64,000 nucleotides of DNA from Escherichia coli (GTDB taxonomy: Bacteria; Pseudomonadota; Gammaproteobacteria; Enterobacterales; Enterobacteriaceae). The notes beneath the pieces were generated by a model that saw nothing but the letters and a program-made list of their open reading frames with translations, searched no databases and had not been told where the DNA came from. The position numbers were made by a program, and so were the translations under genes. Position 1 is the stretch's first letter, and each line of letters begins with the position of its first letter. Below are positions 4,701 to 64,000 of this stretch, piece after piece. The stretch lies in NCBI RefSeq assembly GCF_965641715.1, contig NZ_OZ282453.1; one strand, 5' to 3'.

Positions 4701-7700
4701 TTATTCAAACAGGGCTTCAATATCGTTAATTAGCTCGCTGGCGGTGATGGCATCGAGTACGGAGAGCTGCGCTTCCTGTATTGAATTACTCCCCCAGCCA
4801 TAGCTTTCCGCTTTGCCTTCCCATAGCCACAGCTTGCTTAAGAGTTGCTCGGCACTCAGTTCGGCTGGCGACATGCCTACCGCAAAGCCTTCATCGATTT
4901 CCATGATTAACGACCAGCGGCCCAGAGGTTTGATCATCCAGCCGATCCAGCCTCCATCCTGTGGTTCGCCCTTTATCCAGCCTTTATTCGCCAGCCCCAT
5001 TACCCGACCGCTCGGGCATTTTCTGCCTGCCCAGCGGGTCAGTTCGCTGGCATTGCGCTCGGTTTCTGTCAGGGCGTAACTGTTACGGTCGAGCTGGCGG
5101 AACGGCGGTAGCAGTTCGTAGTCGGCAAAAAGCTGCCCAAATGCGGCGGCATCCGTCGGTGATATTTCCAGAACGTGAGGAATACCAACAGAGATATCGC
5201 CTTCCGGCAGGGTGAAAAGATCATCGTCAGCGGTGCTGTAGCTGTTATCTTCCGCTACGCGGAAGCACGTCAGTAGCTGGTTTTCGGTGCTATAAACGCC
5301 CCAAATCAGACGGCGGGTTAAGTGGTGTACCAGTGGATGTTCAACCAGGAAGAGCTGAAAGTTTTCTGGCGACCAGCGGCGACGCAGGCACATGGCGGAT
5401 TCCAACCTTGCTACCTGCTGGGCGGCGACGGTACGCGCATCTTTTTTCAGCAGTTTGTAGCGGTTAACAGCATCGTTCGCCTGTGATTCATCATCGCTTT
5501 TGTTTGGTTTGGGCAGGTCTTTCAGACGGCTGCCGGAAGCGTCACGCACAAACGGTTTTAAGGTTTCATCAAAGCTGACGGTGAACTGGCGTGGGCCGAA
5601 ATCCAGCAGCAACGAACCGTTATCATCCAGACTGAGATCCGGTGCTAACCGATCTTCAAGCTCCGCCACTGTCAGTTCGCGACTTTCAGCAATGTCGGCA
5701 ATTTTCTCTTTCGCCCGCTCCTGTAAAGCTTTGAATTTCAGTTTCTGAGCAATGCCGTTAAGCTGCATCAGAGCGATATCACTACCGATAGCGGCGAGAA
5801 TATCCAACCCAACGGTGGCGCGTTTATGCTGAGATTCGCCAGGCCAGGCGCGTATTAATGGCGTCAGTTTGCGAGCGGTGTCGTCGTTACCGAGAACACA
5901 TAACGCAGTGAACGCCCAGCTTTCTTTCGATGGTGCACCCGTAGTCAGCCAGGCGGTAAACAGATCCCAGGCAAATTCAGCCAGTGAGTCGGCGGTACAG
6001 GCATCTTTCACCTGCAATAATCCCGGATACAGCGCCTCTTCCTGAGGGAAGCGGAGCATTTCACCGAGGTGGAGGAGGGCGTTATCTGGCAGTACCTTGC
6101 TGCTATTTTTGAGTTTTGGGCGAGTCCATAATGGAGGTTGATAAAACAACGGTAAAGGGGGGATTTTCGCCGGGTATTTACCCACAGGACTGTTGTCGTT
6201 ATTTTTATTTTGAGTTTCCCAGGGCGGCGAGACTAGTACCATTGGTAGAATTTCTGAGTTTGCAAAATCTTCATTGCGACTATTCAGCAATTGCTGACAT
6301 TGTTGCAATAAATTTGCCGCTTGCGACGATAATCCGATGACTAATTTTTCGACCAATAAAGGATTTGCATTAAGTAATGAAACCAGCAACGTATGTTTGC
6401 GTTTATCATCTTTTTTTACCAATTCTTCGGCTAATGCCGCTATCGTGGCAGAAGGAAAATTTTCGGCACTTTTTATTAGTCGTTCATAACAGCGTTTATT
6501 AGTATCGGCGGCTTCGATGAGTGCCGTAATGGCCAACGGATGATTAATACATTTCAGTACGTCACCGCAATTATCTTCTTCAGCATAGGAAGCCAGGCGA
6601 GCCAGTGCCGCTATACCTTGTTCCCGTAATACCGTAGCTGACCAACTGGCACCATAGGTGTTAAATACATCAATGTATTGATAGTTCTCCAGTATTTCGA
6701 GCGTGAATGGATCTGTCGCTACCAGTTTCAACATTTCAAGTTGTGGAACATCTGCGACCTGGTGTAAACGATGTACGATCTCATGGGCCACTTCGGGTAT
6801 TTCTGGCATTAAAATGGCAATTAACGGTTGGCGATAGAGTGATATATCTGGTAACGCAACGAGTAATTTTGCAATGCAATTTTGCCATACTTCTTCTTCT
6901 GCTAGTGATAAATGTTTACGCAGACGTAAACTAAATTTGTCGTTATTCCTTCTATAACTGTCCTTGCTGCTATCTGCATAATTAATAAAGAAAGTCAAAT
7001 GTTCATCTTTATAGTCAAAATCGAAATCAATTTGCCACCAGAAGATGACAGTTTCAGTTGCGTATTCGATACCGAAGGTGCTTACAATTTCATCCAGCAA
7101 CTCGGATGAGGTTTCATCATTCCAGCCCTGACAAAAACATATTTCCAGAAAAGTAAGTACCGCCATAGTACGCGCGGGTATCTCAGTCTTTTGGGCCTTA
7201 ATTAAGCTGATTGCCTGGCTAATCGCATCAGCCCATTCATCAGAGCATGAGCTGTAATCGAAAGTCAGATTTTTATAATAATGATAAGTACGATTTGCCA
7301 ATCGGGAAATTAAATTTTGTTTTTCGGGTTTGGTTGGTTTTTTAACTGGCTCTCCCGGCCAAAGGCGGTGGCTGAGGGCATGGCGGGCAATATTCGGGGG
7401 AAGAATAATGGGATCGTTGTCTGCCAGCCAGGGTAAACCATTAGTTGCTGCCTGGCGATTTATTGAGGCTTTTTCCTCTGTGACCAGGACTTTCTTTGCT
7501 GAGGCATCATGTGAGTGAGCGTTAGCGTCTACTTGCTCCACATACCCCTTCTTCACCTTCTCCGCAATCAGCTTCAGTTCCACTTTTTCCGCCGCCGCAG
7601 CATCTGCAAAGCTTTTTACCTGACTTTGCCCGTTAGTGCCGACTTTACCCCAGGTTATATGCAGCTCGTTTCCCTGCTGCTCCACCGCCCAGAATTTATG

Positions 7701-39101: not shown

Positions 39102-40115
39102 CTACCCTACTGTGGACACTGTGTGGACACTCTGAGAGCCAACACCACCACGTAGAGGATTAAGCGTTATCGCGTCCTGTAGGTACTCAGGGGCGAAGTG
39201 CGCATATGTCATTGTCTGCTCAATTCTTGAATGCCCAAGTATTCTCTGAAGCGTGATAATGTTGCCTCCGTTTATCATAAAGTGCGTGGCGAAGCTGTGC
39301 CGCAATGCGTGCGTAGCCTGACCCGGTGGTAGGTCGGGTTTCAGCTCCTTCATTAGCCGTCTGAACGCGGGATAGTTAGCATCAGTGAACAGATAGCCAC
39401 GCTTACCCGTTGTGATCATTGTTGCCAGTTCCTCGGATATAGGAACGGTTCGCGGCTTGTTGGTTTTTGTCTTAACGAAAGTGACGCGATTTTGAATGAT
39501 ATTTTCCGCTTTCAGTTTTGCTGCCTCACTCCATCTCGCGCCGGTGCTAAGGCAAAGAATCGCAATTTTTTTATTATCACCGTCCACTTTTGACAGCAGA
39601 AGCGCGATCTCCTCTTGCGTCAGGTAGCCGGTTTCTGGCTTATCCTCTTTGAGTCTTTTAAGACCTCGGAAAGGATGCTCCCCGAAAAATAGCTCCGCAT
39701 CTATCAACGCGGTAAACATCCCGCTAAGACACGTTAAATCACGATTTATACTCGATGGCTTGATGCCTTGAGAACGCCGCACAGTGCTGTATTGGCTTAT
39801 CAATGACTTAGTAATCTGAAAGGCACAAGGGTCACTGGTTATCTTTGTGAACAACTCTAACTTGCCCAGGTAATCTCGGCCGTGAGTTTCATACTTGCCT
39901 TTCAGCTCCCACCAGATTTTTGTTAGCTCTGACAGATGCCGCTTATCTGTCGGTTTCGCCAACCATTTTTTGTTGTGATGGTTGTACTGGGTATGCTTCT
40001 CGAAAGCGATAGCTTCGCTTTTCTTGTCAAATTTCCTGCGGATGCGCTTTCCGTTGCGCCCTGCAGGTCTAATGTCCACTTCATAACGACCATCATCGAG
40101 CTTTTTAACAGACAT
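39102..40115 (-). CDS. int: P2-type tyrosine integrase
   Basis: About 337 aa from MSVKKLDDGRYEVDIRPAGRNGKRIRRKF; C-terminal catalytic motifs HALRHSFATHF and LGHSRIEQTMTYAHF. Confidence 0.9.
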   Translation of the reverse strand: MSVKKLDDGRYEVDIRPAGRNGKRIRRKFDKKSEAIAFEKHTQYNHHNKKWLAKPTDKRHLSELTKIWWELKGKYETHGRDYLGKLELFTKITSDPCAFQITKSLISQYSTVRRSQGIKPSSINRDLTCLSGMFTALIDAELFFGEHPFRGLKRLKEDKPETGYLTQEEIALLLSKVDGDNKKIAILCLSTGARWSEAAKLKAENIIQNRVTFVKTKTNKPRTVPISEELATMITTGKRGYLFTDANYPAFRRLMKELKPDLPPGQATHALRHSFATHFMINGGNIITLQRILGHSRIEQTMTYAHFAPEYLQDAITLNPLRGGVGSQSVHTVSTVG

Positions 40116-40211
40116 AAAGCCTCCCGATGATGTTACTGCGTACTTCAATTTCCTGATTTAAATAACAAAAACTCACCGTGCATTTACTGCACAGATAAGC
40201 ACCGTAAATGG

Positions 40212-45443: not shown

Positions 45444-45462
45444 GGCGAGGCGGGGTAAGCGT
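45444..45462. other. Candidate cos (cohesive-end) site
   Basis: Seen: GGCGAGGCGGGGTAAGCGT; the first 12 nt match the P2/186 cohesive end GGCGAGGCGGGGAAAGCAC as I recall it; sits in a GC-rich, structured non-coding stretch. Confidence 0.5.
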
Positions 45463-45533
45463 TGCGCGCGCCTGTCAAAGATATTAAGATTGTCTCAAAA
45501 TCGATTGATTTTATTGAACTAATGGAGCTAGGA

Positions 45534-47090
45534 ATGATTAAGGGTATAGGTCTTCAAAACTTCAGGAGCTTTGTCAACAAAACGTTTATTGATTTAAAAC
45601 CAATTACAGTATTTGTTGGTAAGAACAGCAGTGGTAAAAGTTCCCTATTGCGCACATTTCCTTTACTTCGTCAATCTGTAGAAGAAAATACTACTGGCCC
45701 AATACTATGGTATGGGAGATATGTGGATTTTGGCGATTTTACAGATGTACTTTCCCGAAACTCTGAAAAAAAAGAAATTACGTTTAGTTTTTCACTCTCA
45801 ATTCCGCCAGAGGTTTCACAAAGATATACATATTATCGTTCTACTGATTTAGCAAAGCAACCAACAGATATTGAAGCAGAGTTAACTGTTTACTCTAAAG
45901 ATAAAAAAACAAAAACGAAAACGATTAAGCTTATATTGGCTGATTTAACAATATTTATTTCAATGGATGAGAGTAGTAATGTTAAATTACTCATTGAATC
46001 AGATGATAAAACAATAGAGCGTGATGGGATAATAGCTAAAAATCTTGGGCAGTTCATACCAAATCTAATTTTGAAGGGTAAGGAAGACAGTCCTCCTCCA
46101 AGCACATCATTCTATTTGAGACATTCTAGGCATGACAGGGCGTTAGAATTGTCATTTATTGATTCAGCGGCGAAATATATAAAGAAATATTTCCATACTA
46201 AATCTGATATAAATCAAGTGACAGAGGCATTCAAAAGAATTGGCTTTATACCCAAAGCGTACGCTAGTAAATTAGTTGCTTTTCTATTTAAGGAACAAAA
46301 AGTTTTTAGTAGAAACTTTGAATTTCAACATGATGAAATAATGAATGAGTTATATCCATTTATAATTGGATGGAATATTAATAATCTTATAGATATAATA
46401 AATACATCCTTGTCAGATTCATTCAGAAATGTAAAGTACATAGCTCCACTGCGTGCTACATCAGAAAGATTTTATCGTTTTCAAGATTTACAGGTTAATG
46501 AGATAGATCATACTGGTTCCAATCTTGCAATGCTTTTGAATTCATTAAGACCGGCTGATAAATCAAAATTTGAAGATTGGACAAAGTTAAATTTTGATTT
46601 CATTATCAAGGTTGAACAAAGTGGCTCTCACTTTGCAATTTTAATAAACACCGGTGAAAATAGTGAGAACTATAATGTTAGTGATATGGGGTTTGGTTAT
46701 TCTCAGGTTTTGCCGATAGTTACAGCCATTTGGCTTGAGACAGAACGTCGTGCTACCACGGTTAGAAAACCTATAACATTTATCATTGAGCAGCCAGAAT
46801 TGCATTTACATCCGTCATATCAGCATAATTTAGCAAGTATTTTTGCAAAAGTAGTAACTAAAGCAAAAGAAAATAATGTAGATTTGAAGATAATTTTTGA
46901 GACACATAGCCAGACCATGATTGAAGCACTTGGTGAATATATTGAGGAAAATGAAAGTCTTTCACAGGATGATATTTCAATACTGGTATTTGAAAAAGAT
47001 GATAAGCAGCAGACTATAGTTAAGAAATCTTATTTTGACGAGAATGGTTTCCTAAAAAATTGGCCGGTTGGCTTTTTCTCGGGTAAGTAG
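45534..47090 (+). CDS. Cargo gene 1: ABC/OLD-type (AAA_15/AAA_21-like) ATPase, about 518 aa
   Basis: Walker A GKNSSGKSS; Walker B/D-loop FIIEQPELHLHP; H-loop-like IFETHS; AT-rich; SD GGAG upstream of the ATG chosen at MIKGIGLQNFRSF. Confidence 0.75.
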   Translation: MIKGIGLQNFRSFVNKTFIDLKPITVFVGKNSSGKSSLLRTFPLLRQSVEENTTGPILWYGRYVDFGDFTDVLSRNSEKKEITFSFSLSIPPEVSQRYTYYRSTDLAKQPTDIEAELTVYSKDKKTKTKTIKLILADLTIFISMDESSNVKLLIESDDKTIERDGIIAKNLGQFIPNLILKGKEDSPPPSTSFYLRHSRHDRALELSFIDSAAKYIKKYFHTKSDINQVTEAFKRIGFIPKAYASKLVAFLFKEQKVFSRNFEFQHDEIMNELYPFIIGWNINNLIDIINTSLSDSFRNVKYIAPLRATSERFYRFQDLQVNEIDHTGSNLAMLLNSLRPADKSKFEDWTKLNFDFIIKVEQSGSHFAILINTGENSENYNVSDMGFGYSQVLPIVTAIWLETERRATTVRKPITFIIEQPELHLHPSYQHNLASIFAKVVTKAKENNVDLKIIFETHSQTMIEALGEYIEENESLSQDDISILVFEKDDKQQTIVKKSYFDENGFLKNWPVGFFSGK

Positions 47091-47092
47091 TT

Positions 47093-48205
47093 ATGTTGAT
47101 TAATATCGAAAATGCGACACCTGAGAAGGTGCTAAATAACTCATTTGCCATAGCGGTTGAAAATATACTTCGGGCATTCGCTGAACAAAAACACTTGGTT
47201 ATAGGGGCAAGGGTTTTTTTTAAAACTATTATCAATGATCAAAGCGGGCTTTATAGCCTTTCATCAAAAAGTTACGCGCAAGAGGCTTTGTCGGGTCTAA
47301 CAGAGTACTATGCTATCTTGGATCAGGTCTCATTTTATGTATCTGTCGACTTTAATATTAGTGATAAATCATTTAAATGGGTTCAGATCGGTGAATCTTT
47401 TAAATTTGTTTGTGGTCCATTGTATTTTAATGACTCGGCACAATTGCAAAAAACGAAAATAGTATGTGAAAATCCTTTGGATTCTGATTTTTTTAAGGTT
47501 ATAGCGGCTCATTATGCCGAAGGTATTAACTTATCTCGCTGCGAAATGGGTTTTATCGCTCTAAATGGCGGTGGGGGCAGTACTAAGGATATATTCGAGC
47601 GTGCAATTCAAAATAATGAGATAGTTTTTTGTATTGTGGATAATGACAAAAAACATCCTGGAGCCCCATTCGGAGGTACTTGCTCACATTTTTTGGGCTC
47701 ACAAATTACTCGCTCAGGTTTCGTGGAGATTTTAGATGTACATGAAATAGAATCTCTAGTTCCTTTATCGACAATTGAAGATGTATTAAGAAGTCAAAGT
47801 CAATTGCAACAAAAAGAAAAATCTCTCATTTTCTTTAAGCATCTTTGCTCCGTAGATGAATCAGTAAAATTTTATATTGACCATAAAAAAGGTTTTGATT
47901 TTAAAACAGCCCTTGAACTCGATCGAAAACATGGTGCATATTGGCGTCCGATATTAAAGAAGCTTGATATAAAATATGATTGTGAGTATATCGAATCAAA
48001 ACGTTGTAGCTGCAACGCTGCTTGTGTAAGTTATGATGGTTTTGGAGAGAATTTGCTCAGCAATACATTGAAATATATACAAAAGGGAAGTTTAAAAAAA
48101 TATAATCCTCACCTAACACCAGTGCTTTCTGATAAATGGTATAAGTTAGGTAAGAATTTCTTTAGTTGGAGTTGTGGTCCATATAAAAAAGCAAGGGTTG
48201 GTTAA
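47093..48205 (+). CDS. Cargo gene 2: 370-aa partner protein, possible TOPRIM/DUF4435-like effector with C-terminal Cys cluster
   Basis: ATG 2 nt after the cargo-1 stop; hydrophobic strand plus DxD (IVFCIVDNDKKHPG); CEYIESKRCSCNAAC cluster; AT-rich. Confidence 0.65.
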   Translation: MLINIENATPEKVLNNSFAIAVENILRAFAEQKHLVIGARVFFKTIINDQSGLYSLSSKSYAQEALSGLTEYYAILDQVSFYVSVDFNISDKSFKWVQIGESFKFVCGPLYFNDSAQLQKTKIVCENPLDSDFFKVIAAHYAEGINLSRCEMGFIALNGGGGSTKDIFERAIQNNEIVFCIVDNDKKHPGAPFGGTCSHFLGSQITRSGFVEILDVHEIESLVPLSTIEDVLRSQSQLQQKEKSLIFFKHLCSVDESVKFYIDHKKGFDFKTALELDRKHGAYWRPILKKLDIKYDCEYIESKRCSCNAACVSYDGFGENLLSNTLKYIQKGSLKKYNPHLTPVLSDKWYKLGKNFFSWSCGPYKKARVG

Positions 48206-54086: not shown

Positions 54087-54593
54087 ATGACGACAGTGAT
54101 TATTGAGCCAAAAAAAGAGCCGCAGGACGTGCCGGGCGTGGTGATACCGCCACCGGGCGTGAGTGAGCCGGCAATAAAAAACACCTTCTTTTTTCCTGAT
54201 GTTGATCCGAAGCGCGTGCGTGAGCTGATGCGTCTGGAGCAGACCGTTTCCCCGCTGCGCCTGAATGATGCGATTAAAGCCGGTATGGCCGAAACCAATG
54301 CGGAGCTTGCCCTGTGGCGGGTTGACCAGATGGCCGCAGGTCATCAGACGCTGGCAGATGTGCCTGCCGATGATATCGACGGTGAAAGCGTGCGCTGTTT
54401 CCACTATTTCCGCGCCGTCTGCGCCATGACCAGCGCCACCCTGTTTGAACGCTATCGCGGCATCGATGCGACGGCGAAAGGTGACCGCAAGGCGGAAAGC
54501 ACCGAGGCGGTTATCGATGAACTGTGGCGGGATATGCGCTGGTCTGTGGCGCGTATTCAGGATAAGCCGCGCTGCATTGTCGGCCAAATCTGA
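54087..54593 (+). CDS. L: Head completion/stabilization protein (gpL)
   Basis: 168 aa; position. Confidence 0.8.
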   Translation: MTTVIIEPKKEPQDVPGVVIPPPGVSEPAIKNTFFFPDVDPKRVRELMRLEQTVSPLRLNDAIKAGMAETNAELALWRVDQMAAGHQTLADVPADDIDGESVRCFHYFRAVCAMTSATLFERYRGIDATAKGDRKAESTEAVIDELWRDMRWSVARIQDKPRCIVGQI

Positions 54594-54796
54594 TGAAGGT
54601 TTACGCGATGCAGGGTGACACCCTTGATGCGATTTGCGCCCGGTATTACGGGCGCACTGAGGGCGTCGTTGAAACGGTGCTGCAGGCGAATCCGGGGCTG
54701 TCAGAGTTGGGCGTTATTCTACCGCACGGCACGGCCATTGAACTGCCCGAAACCGACAGCGCCCCGAAAACCGAAACGGTGATTCTATGGGACTGA
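54593..54796 (+). CDS. X: Tail protein X (LysM-like)
   Basis: 67 aa; position. Confidence 0.75.
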   Translation: MKVYAMQGDTLDAICARYYGRTEGVVETVLQANPGLSELGVILPHGTAIELPETDSAPKTETVILWD

Positions 54797-55008
54797 GTGT
54801 GGAAAAAATCACGACCTTTATCGCTTACTGGCTGGCCGTGGGGCTGGCGTATTTCGGGGCGATGTCGCCCGAAAAGCTGGCGCTGTATGTGGGGAGTGCC
54901 TGCGCCATTTTTACCGCGCTGACGAATTACTGGTTTAAGCGCAAAACCTTTCGCTATCTGAAATCGCTCGGACTCGATAAGGGGGCGATACGTGAGCTCA
55001 ATCATTAA
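54787..55008 (+). CDS. Y: Holin-like membrane protein (gpY)
   Basis: 73 aa with two hydrophobic segments, directly upstream of the endolysin. Confidence 0.65.
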   Translation: MGLSVEKITTFIAYWLAVGLAYFGAMSPEKLALYVGSACAIFTALTNYWFKRKTFRYLKSLGLDKGAIRELNH

Positions 55009-55501
55009 ACGCTGCAGTGTGGCCGCCGTGCTGGCGCTGGCGGCACTGGTGCCTGACTTTCGTCTGCTTAACACCTCGCCCGAGGGGCTGGCGCTGATTG
55101 CTGACCTTGAAGGATGTCGCCTGACGCCTTACCAGTGCAGCGCGGGCGTGTGGACGTCGGGCATTGGCCACACTGCCGGGGTTGTCCCGAAAGGGGATAT
55201 TACCGAACAGCGCGCGGCGGAAAACCTCGTCGCGGATGTGCTCAACACTGAGCAACGGCTCGCGGTCTGTGTGCCGGTGGATATGCCACCGCGCGTCTAT
55301 GACACGCTGGTCAGTTTTGCCTTTAACGTGGGAACGGGGGCCGCCTGCCGGTCGACGCTGGTCTCGTATATCAAACGTCATCAGTGGTGGCAGGCGTGCG
55401 ACCAGCTCACCCGCTGGGTGTATGTGAAGGGTGTCCGAAACCGGGGGCTGGAAAACCGCCGCGATCGGGAGTGGGCTTACTGCGTTAAGGGGATGCAATG
55501 A
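54992..55501 (+). CDS. K: Endolysin (phage lysozyme, gpK)
   Basis: 169 aa; lysozyme motif LEGCRLTPYQCSAGVWTSGIGHT. Confidence 0.85.
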   Translation: MSSIIKRCSVAAVLALAALVPDFRLLNTSPEGLALIADLEGCRLTPYQCSAGVWTSGIGHTAGVVPKGDITEQRAAENLVADVLNTEQRLAVCVPVDMPPRVYDTLVSFAFNVGTGAACRSTLVSYIKRHQWWQACDQLTRWVYVKGVRNRGLENRRDREWAYCVKGMQ

Positions 55502-55923
55502 AAGTGCTGATTATTCTGCTGGCCGGGTTGCTCGCCATGGTGCTGTGGCTGCGCCACGATAACGCGAATTTATCCCGCTCCTTTGAAAAGGCGAACCGGG
55601 TCGCCAATGAGCAAAAGACGACGATTGGCATGCTGAAAAATCAGTTTGCCGTATCGCAGCGCATCGCCAGGACGAATGAAGCCGTGCAGGTCAGGCTCAG
55701 TGACGAGCTGAACGCCGCCGGAGAGCTGGCGGCAAGACGTGAACAAACCATAACGAGGCTGCTGAATGAAAACGAGGATTTGCGCCGCTGGTATAGCGCT
55801 GATTTGCCTGATGCTGTGCGCCGGTTGCACATCCGCACCGGCTGCGCCTCCGCTGCCTATTGTTTACAACGCCTGCCCGAAGGTGAGCTTCTGCCCGATG
55901 CCGGGCAGCGATCCCACGACTAA
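55498..55923 (+). CDS. lysB: i-spanin (LysB/Rz-like)
   Basis: 141 aa; N-terminal TM helix then coiled-coil region. Confidence 0.75.
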   Translation: MKVLIILLAGLLAMVLWLRHDNANLSRSFEKANRVANEQKTTIGMLKNQFAVSQRIARTNEAVQVRLSDELNAAGELAARREQTITRLLNENEDLRRWYSADLPDAVRRLHIRTGCASAAYCLQRLPEGELLPDAGQRSHD

Positions 55924-56056
55924 CGGCGACCTGAGTGCTGATATTCGCAGGCTTGAGCACGCGCTCACCGCCTGCGCGCTAAAGGTCGAAACCATCAAAG
56001 ACTGTCAGGATAAAATCGATGCAGAAAATGAAAAGCCTGCGCCAGGCGCTTACTGA
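55766..56056 (+). CDS. lysC: o-spanin lipoprotein (LysC/Rz1-like), embedded out of frame in lysB
   Basis: 96 aa; lipobox LCAGC; Pro-rich; overlaps lysB 3' end in another frame. Confidence 0.7.
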   Translation: MKTRICAAGIALICLMLCAGCTSAPAAPPLPIVYNACPKVSFCPMPGSDPTTNGDLSADIRRLEHALTACALKVETIKDCQDKIDAENEKPAPGAY

Positions 56057-56486
56057 CGCCGTGCCGCAGTTAAAAAACAATCCCGAAATGATGCGCATCT
56101 TTGCCGATGAGGGAAATATCTATGCGCGTCTCGCGGCCTCGCTGTCTCATGAAAAGAATTACACCCTGAATGTGATCGTCTGCGATTTTGTGGGCGACCC
56201 TGACCTGATTTTCGTGCCGGTGGCGGCATGGCTGCGTGAGAACCAGCCGGATATCTGCACGCTGGATGAGGGGCGCAAAAAGGGCTATCGGTTCCAGATG
56301 GATTTAAACGACGGTGATAATGTGGATATCAGTATCAGCCTGCAGCTCACCGAGCGCACTCTCGTCAGGGATGAAAATGGTGCGCTGCACGTCAGCTATG
56401 CGCCTGAACCACCTTTACCCGAGCCGGTGACGCGGCCAACTGAGCTGTATATCAATGGCGAACTGGTGAGCAAATGGGATGAATGA
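56019..56486 (+). CDS. R: Tail completion protein R
   Basis: 155 aa; position. Confidence 0.75.
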   Translation: MQKMKSLRQALTDAVPQLKNNPEMMRIFADEGNIYARLAASLSHEKNYTLNVIVCDFVGDPDLIFVPVAAWLRENQPDICTLDEGRKKGYRFQMDLNDGDNVDISISLQLTERTLVRDENGALHVSYAPEPPLPEPVTRPTELYINGELVSKWDE

Positions 56487-56946
56487 ATTTAAACCTTTTG
56501 ATGACAAGCTTGCGGGGTTGATTGCGGCAATATCACCGGCGGGTAGGCGTAAGCTGGCCGCTGAAATAGCAAAGCAACTGCGCAGATCGCAACAGCAACG
56601 CATCAAACAGCAAATTGCGCCTGATGGCACGCCGTATCAGGCTCGTAAGCGCCAGCCGCTCAGGGCAAAATCGGGGCGAATCAAAAGGTCGATGTTCCAG
56701 AAATTGCGAACCAGTCGCTACATGAAAGCCAGTGGCCGCAATGATGCCGCCGTGGTGGAGTTTACCGGCAAAGTGCAACGCATCGCCCAGATTCATCAGC
56801 TCGGACTCAAAGACCGGCCAAACCCTCATGCTCAGGACGTGCAATACCCGGAACGCCAGTTACTCGGATTTAGCATGACTGATAAGGAGTTGATTGAACT
56901 GTTAATTAACATGCATTTCAGAAAAAATACTGTGGCTGAATGCTGA
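56479..56946 (+). CDS. S: Tail completion protein S
   Basis: 155 aa; position. Confidence 0.75.
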   Translation: MNEFKPFDDKLAGLIAAISPAGRRKLAAEIAKQLRRSQQQRIKQQIAPDGTPYQARKRQPLRAKSGRIKRSMFQKLRTSRYMKASGRNDAAVVEFTGKVQRIAQIHQLGLKDRPNPHAQDVQYPERQLLGFSMTDKELIELLINMHFRKNTVAEC

Positions 56947-57038: not shown

Positions 57039-57791
57039 CTAACGTTCGAATATTATTATCACCCCAAGAGTGAGATGTATATGATCTTCTATTTGTTCAT
57101 ATTCTTCTTGGGTGTAAGAAAGTTTAGCTAATTCTTCTGTTGCTGAAAAGACATCAATGGATACTTGGACGCCTGATGGGATTTCATTTTTTATTTCATT
57201 AATGTATTTGTTGTATTTTCTTGTGATTAGTATTATTGCGCGATCTCTGTCGACGGTGGTTGAGCAATATCGATTGGATTTGCTGTTGTTATTGTGGAAT
57301 GATTCGAATGCGCAATTGAGGGCAAGTCTTAGATTTGATGATCCTGTATTTCCAGTGTGATTGAAGTATTCTATGTTTCTTCTTAAGTCTTCAAATAGTT
57401 TTGCCTTATTTGGATTGTCCCCTTTAACTTCAATAGCACATTTTGGATAATCAAACCCATTATTATTGCCTAGTATGGCAATGTCTATCCTACCTTTTCT
57501 GGTTGTGTTTGCTTTGATTCTTAGTATTTGCCTTGAAAATATTTTCCCCGGCGTTAGTCTTTTTGAAAATGGCACCGTTGAAGTTATAAAATCCCCTGTA
57601 TCATATTCAAAAATTATTTTCTCATCATCTATGTGAAAATTTTTACTATCAAGTAGGGCTTTGCCTATTGATACAGTAGCGACGTATTCGGTATTGATTT
57701 TACCACCAGAACTGAAATTCATTAAACGTGTGATTTTAGCTGCATTGGACATGCCATCCTTTACTGCTGTGATTATTTCGTAATTGTCCAT
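57039..57791 (-). CDS. Cargo gene (moron), 250 aa, candidate PD-(D/E)xK-fold nuclease
   Basis: Opposite strand to the late genes; AT-rich; motif RIDIAILG...CAIEVKGD (D...E-x-K). Confidence 0.6.
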   Translation of the reverse strand: MDNYEIITAVKDGMSNAAKITRLMNFSSGGKINTEYVATVSIGKALLDSKNFHIDDEKIIFEYDTGDFITSTVPFSKRLTPGKIFSRQILRIKANTTRKGRIDIAILGNNNGFDYPKCAIEVKGDNPNKAKLFEDLRRNIEYFNHTGNTGSSNLRLALNCAFESFHNNNSKSNRYCSTTVDRDRAIILITRKYNKYINEIKNEIPSGVQVSIDVFSATEELAKLSYTQEEYEQIEDHIHLTLGVIIIFER

Positions 57792-58109
57792 ATTATTTAC
57801 TCAGGTAACTGTTTTATTTTGATTGTTCTTACTGGATGTTTTATAAGTATAATAATTTGGATTATGCTAATCAACTAGTCTTCTTTCGGCTTTTACTAAT
57901 GACTCATTTATGAATGATAATGTTATGATTCCAGCAACCGAAGTGGGTATTTTTTTGCACCCAAGTGATCGTTTTGTGGAACTAATATGAGTCTATAAGT
58001 ATCCCTATTTCACTAGTAGGTTGAGACGTCACACTTGCTGGCTGTTGTTTCATGCCCCACAAAACTCAGCTCAATTGTCGCTGGCCTCACTAGGCGGCAT
58101 CCTTTCCCC

Positions 58110-62941: not shown

Positions 62942-64000
62942 ATGAGTGACTATCATCACGGCGTCGAGGTCATCGAGATTAACGATGGCGTGCGCACCAT
63001 TTCCACCGTTTCAACCGCCATTATCGGCATGGTCTGTACGGCCAGCGATGCTGACGAGAAAACATTTCCCCTCAATGAGCCGGTACTCATTACGAACGTG
63101 CAGAGTGCTATCGGTAAGGCTGGCAAAAAGGGCACGCTGTCGACGTCCCTGCAGGCTATCGCTGACCAGTGCAAACCTGTCATCGTGGCCGTGCGTGTGG
63201 CCGAAGGTATTGAAGATCCGGAGAACCCCGAAGCGGCGCACAAACAGACCATTTCCAATATCATCGGCACCACCGATGAAAACGGCAAATATACCGGGCT
63301 GAAAGCCCTGCTGACGGCGAAAACCGTCACCGGCGTTAAGCCACGGATTCTCGGCGTGCCGGGGCTGGATTCGCAGGAAGTGGCGACCGCGCTCGCGTCC
63401 ACCTGTCAGAGCCTGCGCGCCTTTGGCTATATCAGCGCGTGGGGCTGTAAAACCATTTCCGATGCCATCGACTACCGCGAGAATTTCAGCCAGCGTGAGC
63501 TGATGGTCATCTTCCCTGATTTTCTGGCATGGGACACCACGGCGAACGCGACCGCGACAACCTGGGCGACGGCGCGCGCACTCGGCCTGCGTGCCAAAAT
63601 CGACCAGACGGTCGGCTGGCATAAAACCCTGTCTAACGTTGGCGTTAACGGTGTGACCGGCGTCAGTGCCTCAGTATCGTGGGATTTGCAGGAACCGGCG
63701 ACCGACGCCAACCTGCTGAATCAGGCTGGTGTCACTACGCTTATCCGCAATGATGGTTTCAAATTTTGGGGAAACCGTACCTGCTCAGATGATCCGCTTT
63801 TCCTGTTTGAAAACTACACCCGCACCGCGCAGGTGCTGGCCGACACGATGGCGGAGGCGCACGCGTGGGCGATGGATAAACCCATTACCCCGACCCTCAT
63901 TCGCGATATCGTTTCCGGTATCAATGCCAAATTCCGCGAGCTGAAAACCAACGGTTATATCGTTGACGGCTTCTGCTGGTACGACCCGGAGTCGAACGAC
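62942..64000 (+). CDS. FI: Tail sheath protein FI (partial, runs off the window end)
   Basis: Translation MSDYHHGVEVIEINDGVRTISTVSTAIIGMVCTASDADEKTFPLNEPVLITNVQSAIGKAGKKGTL is P2 FI-like; frame open to position 64000. Confidence 0.85.
   Translation, partial: MSDYHHGVEVIEINDGVRTISTVSTAIIGMVCTASDADEKTFPLNEPVLITNVQSAIGKAGKKGTLSTSLQAIADQCKPVIVAVRVAEGIEDPENPEAAHKQTISNIIGTTDENGKYTGLKALLTAKTVTGVKPRILGVPGLDSQEVATALASTCQSLRAFGYISAWGCKTISDAIDYRENFSQRELMVIFPDFLAWDTTANATATTWATARALGLRAKIDQTVGWHKTLSNVGVNGVTGVSASVSWDLQEPATDANLLNQAGVTTLIRNDGFKFWGNRTCSDDPLFLFENYTRTAQVLADTMAEAHAWAMDKPITPTLIRDIVSGINAKFRELKTNGYIVDGFCWYDPESND

Follow-up and report, generated by a model that had tools for sequence, protein, structure and literature searches.

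Which kind of lysis cassette is represented by the pair of genes at 55498-56056, how are the two genes arranged relative to each other, and what does the lack of lysA next to them mean? The pair lies near the right end of a 64,000-nt stretch of Escherichia coli DNA, the whole of which is referred to below as the window. The original prediction, made from the letters of the sequence, had described the locus as an embedded, Rz/Rz1-like spanin pair downstream of an endolysin gene named K, from which the lysA gene carried by P2 between K and lysB was missing. After comparison with protein families, named phages and complete E. coli genomes, the locus is very probably the lysis cassette of a P2/186-family (Peduoviridae) prophage in the E. 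coli chromosome, with the pair at 55498-56056 forming part of a complete set of lysis genes at 54787-56056.

Organization of the late operon

The host backbone of the window is E. coli, the yegX-thiMD region being up to 99.5% identical. In the prophage, an integrase gene (39102-40148, − strand) is followed by replication gene A, the portal gene Q and the late genes, and the element extends past the end of the window at 64000. As judged from the listing of open reading frames together with reading of the sequence, the order of the late operon around the cassette is L, X, holin, endolysin, lysB, lysC, R and S, all on the + strand. L (54087-54593; PF05926) and X (54593-54796; PF05489) are located upstream of the lysis genes, and the tail completion gene R (56019-56486; PF06891 P2_Phage_GpR, 4.3e-44) and S (56479-56946; PF05069) are located downstream. 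All of the late genes adjoining the cassette are intact. A cargo open reading frame further downstream (57039-57791) was found to be unrelated to P2 orf30.

The LysB and LysC pair

Both open reading frames that had been proposed for the pair proved to be real, and the product of each passes the equivalog cut-off of its NCBIfam model, at a level well beyond chance. The lysB gene (55498-55923, + strand, ATG start) encodes a protein of 141 aa, which scored 128.6 bits (1.9e-37) against TIGR03495 phage_LysB ('Rz-like lysis system protein LysB'; cut-off 92.75) and matched phrog_89, Rz-like spanin, in PHROGs (4.4e-49), while a Pfam search of LysB gave no family match. The identity between P2 LysB and the window LysB is 59%. 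A single N-terminal TMD was detected at residues 3-17, with a mean Kyte-Doolittle value of 2.96. The AF2 model of LysB consists of one long helix from residue 2 to residue 112 (pLDDT about 87-94 for residues 1-100) and of a disordered, Cys-containing C-terminal tail. The shape of LysB in this model, an N-terminal TMD plus a long, presumably periplasmic, alpha-helix, is that expected of an i-spanin.

The lysC gene (55766-56056, + strand, ATG start, 96 aa) is preceded by a Shine-Dalgarno sequence, GAGG, 7 nt upstream of its start. LysC scored 123.7 bits (2.6e-36) against NF038368 P2_Rz1 and 52.7 bits (3.9e-14) against PF23793, its sole Pfam match; both models carry the description 'Rz1-like lysis system protein LysC' and have a cut-off of 27. 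The PHROGs label for LysC is Rz-like spanin, and P2 LysC is 70.5% identical to the window protein. The product begins with MKTRICAAGIALICLMLCAGC-TS. Its predicted signal peptide, MKTRICAAGIALICLMLCAG, is composed of the n-region MKTR and a hydrophobic core, and the lipobox LCAGC occupies residues 17-21, with Cys21 as the predicted lipidated residue, Thr22 at position +2 and a Pro-rich mature N-terminus. In an alignment of 8 homologs, the length of 96 aa was common to all eight, and M1, K2, C18, G20, C21 and T22 were invariant. The presence of the LCAGC string and the invariance of C21 and T22 agree with the original prediction that LysC is a lipoprotein. A strict lipobox regular expression gave no match in LysC, owing to the Cys at −3 (L-C-A-G-C), but this mismatch was not counted against the prediction of a lipoprotein, since the P2 LysC family shows no variation in the motif. 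Sorting to the outer membrane is predicted because the +2 residue is Thr22, and not Asp.

In public annotations of the LysC family, the start is often placed at a Met within the protein, so that the product has 52 or 81 aa rather than 96 aa and lacks the signal peptide.

Spanin gene pairs are divided into three classes, embedded, overlapped and separated (PMC6139136; Kongari et al. 2018). In that classification, the embedded class has the o-spanin gene wholly within the i-spanin gene, as in lambda; the type example of the overlapped class is P2 LysB/LysC; and embedded and overlapped members are never mixed within one spanin family. The start of lysC was confirmed to lie inside lysB in a different frame, namely the +1 frame, but the gene is not contained in lysB, as the original label 'embedded' had implied. 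The two genes share 158 nt (55766-55923), and lysB stops at 55923; the remaining 133 nt of lysC lie past that point, the last 38 nt, up to 56056, being within R. As lysC runs beyond the lysB stop, the pair is overlapped and not embedded under the above definitions (PMC6139136), indicating that the window LysB/LysC pair belongs to the overlapped class of P2 type. In both P2 and 186, lysC likewise spans from lysB to R, and the NCBI annotation note for lysC in E. coli genomes reads 'substantially overlapping although not fully embedded'.

The family-model scores, the LysB TMD and the LysC lipobox together support the earlier assignment of LysB and LysC as a putative two-component spanin pair of Rz/Rz1 type. 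As in lambda Rz/Rz1, a predicted inner-membrane protein with a periplasmic helix is combined with a small Pro-rich, predicted outer-membrane lipoprotein encoded in the +1 frame; the difference is that Rz1 lies wholly inside Rz, whereas lysC extends past lysB. The DNA identity to distant relatives was 78-83% in the dual-coding DNA (146 nt) and 61-69% in the lysB-only DNA upstream, the higher conservation of the dual-coding part being what constraint on two frames predicts.

Holin and endolysin

The holin gene (54787-55008, + strand) encodes a protein of 73 aa that matched the phrog_20 holin (3.1e-21). Its Pfam scores stayed below the cut-off, at 22.6 against 28.8 for PF16080 (HP1 holin) and at 18.3 against 26 for PF04971 (P21 holin S). 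Two moderately hydrophobic segments were found at residues 11-25 and 31-45, the C-terminus is charged, and the identity of the protein with the Midge holin and with that of a Yersinia phage is 82%. By these features, the window holin resembles the class II holins of the HP1 and P21 families, with two predicted TMDs, and may be of either the pinholin or the canonical subclass. Homology with P2 Y was considered and ruled out: P2 Y and 186 Orf24 belong to PF04550, and P2 Y and P2 K as queries gave zero matches in the 64-kb window.

The endolysin gene (54992-55501, + strand, 169 aa) starts with GTG and overlaps the 3' end of the holin gene by 17 nt. Its product matched PF00959 (phage lysozyme domain; 6.1e-36) and the phrog_7 endolysin (2e-58). 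The N-terminus carries a weakly hydrophobic segment, SVAAVLALAALV, in which residues 9-23, SVAAVLALAALVPDF, are preceded by the charged IIKR and align with the SAR region of P1 Lyz in 1XJT. From residue 40, the motif EGCRLTPYQCSAGVWT gives E40-G-C42-x6-C49-x5-T55, that is, E-x8-[D/C]-x5-T, and Cys8 is also present. The closest relatives in PDB are 1XJT/1XJU and 3HDE/3HDF (E-values 7e-22 to 4e-18), which we take to be P1 Lyz and phage 21 R, respectively, both SAR endolysins. Among phage proteins, the window endolysin is 84-87% identical to those annotated as 'SAR endolysin' (Midge, 87%) and 'lysozyme R' (Yersinia phage). By these observations, the product is a predicted lysozyme of SAR type, with P1 Lyz and phage 21 R among its relatives.

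The likeness to both lies in the lysozyme fold family and in an N-terminal segment of SAR type. The E-G-C-x6-C-x5-T of the window protein aligns with E42/C44/C51 of P1 Lyz; as in the phage 21 R/S21 pinholin system, it is partnered by a small holin with two predicted TMDs. Both proteins are, however, distant relatives, as the E-values given above indicate, and the Cys of the SAR domain is residue 8 in the window endolysin rather than a mid-segment residue. With Cys8, Cys42 and Cys49, the window endolysin may be activated by disulfide isomerisation of the P1 type. The name 'endolysin K', which the original prediction had used, could not be kept: similarity to P2 K is undetectable, and PF00959 is matched by the window endolysin and not by P2 K or 186 P, for neither of which any Pfam match, PF00959 included, was obtained at E <= 0.01.

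Absence of lysA from the cassette

The stop codon of the endolysin gene (TGA, 55499-55501) overlaps the start codon of lysB (ATG, 55498-55500) within a shared ATGA at 55498-55501, as had been predicted. This overlap leaves zero space between the two genes, and lysA is thus absent from the cassette. The same junction is the position of lysA in P2, Midge, EtG, ENT4 and E. coli A15. The finding named at the outset as one that would refute the prediction, a homolog of lysA hidden in another frame, was searched for by tblastn in the six frames of the 64-kb window and was not obtained. The queries, P2 LysA and Midge LysA, are both members of NCBIfam NF038378 (DNZ54_00345 family), and even with permissive settings (word size 2, E up to 10) the best match had an E-value of 0.027 and was located in host DNA at 5892-6026. 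A hydropathy scan of stop-to-stop open reading frames of at least 50 aa in the region 39000-64000 gave no multi-TMD candidate except for two frames with two segments each, at 57726-57875 (+ strand), inside AT-rich cargo, and at 62959-63405 (− strand), both of which were deemed implausible as LysA analogs. The same detector found three segments in each of the control LysA proteins from P2, Midge and A15. As to published accounts, no statements on lysA were found in Rousset et al. 2022, in which the text matches were word-prefix artefacts, and the LysA and LysB of PMC6116005 are mycobacteriophage proteins of the same names but unrelated.

Comparison with related cassettes

The original prediction had treated the absence of lysA as a notable feature, but the same endolysin-lysB junction without lysA is present in phage 186 (NC_001317). 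The 186 cassette is composed of the Orf24 holin, the P endolysin, a LysB homolog and Orf28 (LysC), followed by N, the equivalent of R. From the endolysin on, the layout is identical to that of the window, including a 96-aa Orf28 that starts in lysB and ends in N, and the 186 proteins are about 67-70% (LysB) and 68% (LysC) identical to those of the window. The difference lies in the upstream half: the holin and endolysin of 186 are of P2 Y/K type (PF04550; no PF00959), whereas the window carries an HP1-like holin and a SAR lysozyme. The P2 cassette (Y-K-lysA-lysB-lysC) agrees with that of the window in its position after X and before R, in its homologous LysB and LysC, and in the overlap of lysC into R. 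It differs by lysA (141 aa, 4 TMDs according to the literature), which is inserted between K and lysB, and by its holin Y and endolysin K, which are unrelated in sequence to the window counterparts.

The opposite combination was found in phages Midge, EtG (Erwinia) and ENT4 (Enterobacter) and in the E. coli A15 prophage, which carry an equivalent holin, SAR endolysin, LysB and LysC. ENT4 DNA is 84% identical to the window over L-X-holin-endolysin, and the cassette flanks of A15 are 94.7% identical. In contrast to the window, these four have lysA between endolysin and lysB, and their LysB begins with MS[KR] instead of MKVL. In A15, the extra DNA of about 420 nt (a 429-nt lysA) is located exactly at the window junction, and its LysB begins with MSRFIV.

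Besides phage 186, 13 Yersinia Eganvirus phages and Klebsiella phage RCIP0057 share the arrangement of the window: lysA is missing, the stop codon of the endolysin gene overlaps the start codon of lysB, and a lysC of 96 aa overlaps both lysB and R. These phages were deposited as complete genomes of isolated phages. The junction sequence ATGAAAGT, together with the LysB N-terminus MKVL, is common to the window, phage 186, the Yersinia Eganvirus phages and E. coli KV7. By megablast, the cassette (54700-56200) had matches in 161 of the 5426 complete E. coli genomes, six of which carry a full-length cassette of 94.7-95.3% identity in the equal, lysA-less gene order, annotated as lysozyme, LysB and LysC. 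The lysozyme gene, as a marker of the holin plus lysozyme module, was found by blastn in about 1085 of the 5426 genomes. A LysB homolog was found in 126 records of the phage collection and a LysA homolog in 79, so that about a third of the LysB-bearing records are without detectable LysA, and lysA of the Midge/A15 type was detectable in 18 of the 5426 E. coli genomes; counts of genomes without lysA depend on the sensitivity of the sequence search and could overestimate its absence. The cassette type is therefore already known, both from phage 186 and from many sequenced phages and prophages.

Gain and loss of lysA

Each of the two holin/endolysin types occurs both with and without lysA, which makes four combinations: the Y/K type has lysA in P2 and lacks it in 186, and the HP1-type holin with SAR lysozyme is accompanied by lysA in Midge, EtG, ENT4 and A15 but not in the window, KV7 and the Yersinia Eganvirus phages. 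Since each combination is represented, lysA is an optional and mobile accessory of the cassette, dispensable, and gained or lost independently of the type of holin and endolysin. The lysA gene of P2 is reportedly non-essential. Wherever lysA is present, it overlaps lysB at the 5' end of the latter, and the N-terminus of LysB covaries with its presence, MS[KR] being found with lysA and MKVL without. P2 LysA has been described as an antiholin that delays lysis (PMC3091744). As a speculative and rather improbable proposal, LysA might be, instead of an antiholin specific for Y, a timing or membrane factor that is independent of the holin and functionally tied to the spanin LysB.

The function of LysA might be supplied otherwise in the window, either by a second start within the holin gene, as in lambda S107/S105 and S21 71/68, or by an unrecognised small protein. 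In lambda and phage 21, the use of two starts to make an antiholin is established (mentioned in PMC3091744). The window holin gene begins with ATG GGA CTG AGT GTG GAA, and the in-frame GTG at codon 5 would possibly allow two products. The long forms of lambda and phage 21 act as antiholins through Lys-containing extensions, whereas the four extra residues here, MGLS, bring no positive charge. Except for the two implausible frames described above, no other open reading frame with at least two strong hydrophobic segments was detected in 39000-64000. A substitute for LysA is accordingly considered unlikely.

The presence of the 429-nt lysA at the junction in A15, a near relative with flanks of about 94.7% identity, indicates an insertion/deletion polymorphism between near relatives. 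The cassette could on this ground be regarded as a decaying remnant, in which lysA was lost from a defective prophage by a recent deletion and the control of lysis timing was broken. The ATGA stop/start overlap is, however, clean, and both the frame and the TMD of LysB are intact. As the ATGAAAGT junction with MKVL is also present in phage 186, the Yersinia phages and E. coli KV7, it represents an old and widespread allele rather than a private lesion. Moreover, phages without lysA were isolated and deposited as complete genomes, and the neighbouring late genes of the window are intact. Altogether, decay of the cassette by recent loss of lysA is most improbable. Derivation of the junction from the A15 allele by a single clean deletion, from the lysA start ATGAAA to about codon 5 of lysB, was also rejected: it predicts a LysB beginning with MKVILLA, and MKVLIILLA was observed. 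Because the predicted and the observed N-termini differ, the lysA-less junction is not reducible to one clean event.

The original picture as a whole, in which a P2 cassette stripped of lysA contains an embedded Rz/Rz1 pair of lambda type, agrees with the start of lysC within lysB in the +1 frame, but is virtually untenable in view of the end of lysC 133 nt past the lysB stop, the difference of the window holin and endolysin from P2 Y and K, and the rule that spanin families never mix embedded with overlapped members (PMC6139136).

Proposed mode of lysis

The complete cassette of the P2/186-family prophage is predicted to be functional, as judged from homology. In the first step, the two-TMD holin would build up in the inner membrane and collapse the membrane potential at a programmed time. 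The SAR endolysin, which after export by Sec would be kept inactive through its N-terminal signal-anchor-release segment, would then be freed, refold and degrade the peptidoglycan. [quoted passage not shown] A separate ribosome-binding site would serve the translation of lysC in the +1 frame, from its start in lysB to its end in R. The lysA gene, for an accessory membrane protein with 4 TMDs, is missing from this variant of the cassette, just as it is from phage 186. Characterised homologs, namely lambda Rz/Rz1, P1 Lyz, phage 21 S/R and the P2 lysis genes, are the basis for the proposed sequence of events, the release of the SAR endolysin, the fusion of the membranes and the size of the holin hole. 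The first two steps would follow P1 Lyz and phage 21 S/R, and the third would follow lambda Rz/Rz1 in the model of PMC6139136.

The significance of this locus by itself is small: lysis cassettes of this kind are common in Peduoviridae, and this is a further example. It illustrates that the terms for spanin architecture need precise use, the window pair being overlapped and not embedded. Natural pairs with and without lysA that are about 95% identical, such as A15 versus KV7 or the window, could help to define the function of LysA.

Presence and absence of lysA in the lysis cassette

The lysA gene of E. coli A15 (429 nt; DNZ54_00345 family) is located at positions 1102-1530 of the comparison record L007 (NZ_CP028759), at the junction between the endolysin gene and lysB, of which the counterpart in the window is 55498. 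The gene is missing in both strain KV7 and the window, and the cassettes are about 95% identical; lysA is a presence/absence polymorphism among cassettes of this degree of identity. The first residues of LysB were found to covary with the state of lysA in 8 phages and prophages, being MS[KR].. where lysA is present and MKVL.. where it is absent.

The endolysin gene (window 54992-55501, plus strand) encodes Cys49 at the catalytic-triad position (E40-x8-C49-x5-T55), together with Cys42 and, within the N-terminal SAR segment, Cys8. As judged from the alignment, the arrangement appears to be the same as that of P1 Lyz (E42/C44/C51 and C13), for which it supports activation by disulfide isomerization.

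Annotation of the lysis genes

P2 LysA (L003, NC_070904, 1829-2254; phrog_162), a membrane protein with several TMDs, is a putative antiholin. Several RefSeq phage records, as well as PHROGs, call it 'endolysin', and in the P2 record NC_070904 the actual endolysin, K, goes by 'hypothetical protein'; this misnaming propagates.

The conserved lysC ORF is 96 aa in length, with M1-K2 and the lipobox invariant. In public annotation, lysC starts at an internal Met in six of the comparison records (L001, 2827-2985; L002, 2396-2554; L003, 2654-2812; L005, 2629-2787; L007, 1828-2073; and L008, 1412-1657). The annotated product is 52 aa in the GenBank records of phages and in a single RefSeq record of P2, and 81 aa by PGAP, the signal peptide being lost in both. 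In contrast, Orf28 of phage 186 is annotated at the full 96 aa. Start errors of this kind are reported to be common among o-spanins (PMC6139136).

Cargo genes of the prophage

Between the replication gene A, which is accompanied by a DUF3850/ASCH ORF, and the portal gene Q, an AT-rich island (window 45462-48205, plus strand; GC 0.33-0.35) carries two genes. The first encodes a 542-aa ATPase (AAA_15/AAA_21/DUF3696), matched in PADLOC by NsnB (4.9e-55), PDC-M55A (7.5e-46), and AriA (7e-31), while its 370-aa partner gave a weak match to PDC-M55B alone (2e-4). The A-Q interval is the old/tin defence hotspot of P2 (PMC9122126). The two genes of the island probably form an anti-phage system, the type of which is uncertain.

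Another AT-rich ORF (window 57039-57791, minus strand; 250 aa, GC about 0.33) is located between the tail genes S and V, and was matched over its full length by the PADLOC model (5.6e-93) of Tin, the T-even exclusion protein of P2, and also by phrog_9821. In P2, the S/V slot is filled instead by the unrelated orf30, for which comparison with the window ORF detected no similarity. Both tin and old of P2 sit at the gpA-gpQ locus (PMC9122126). Because the Tin-like ORF of the window lies in the S/V gap and not at that locus, this gap seems to be a second slot for cargo or defence genes.
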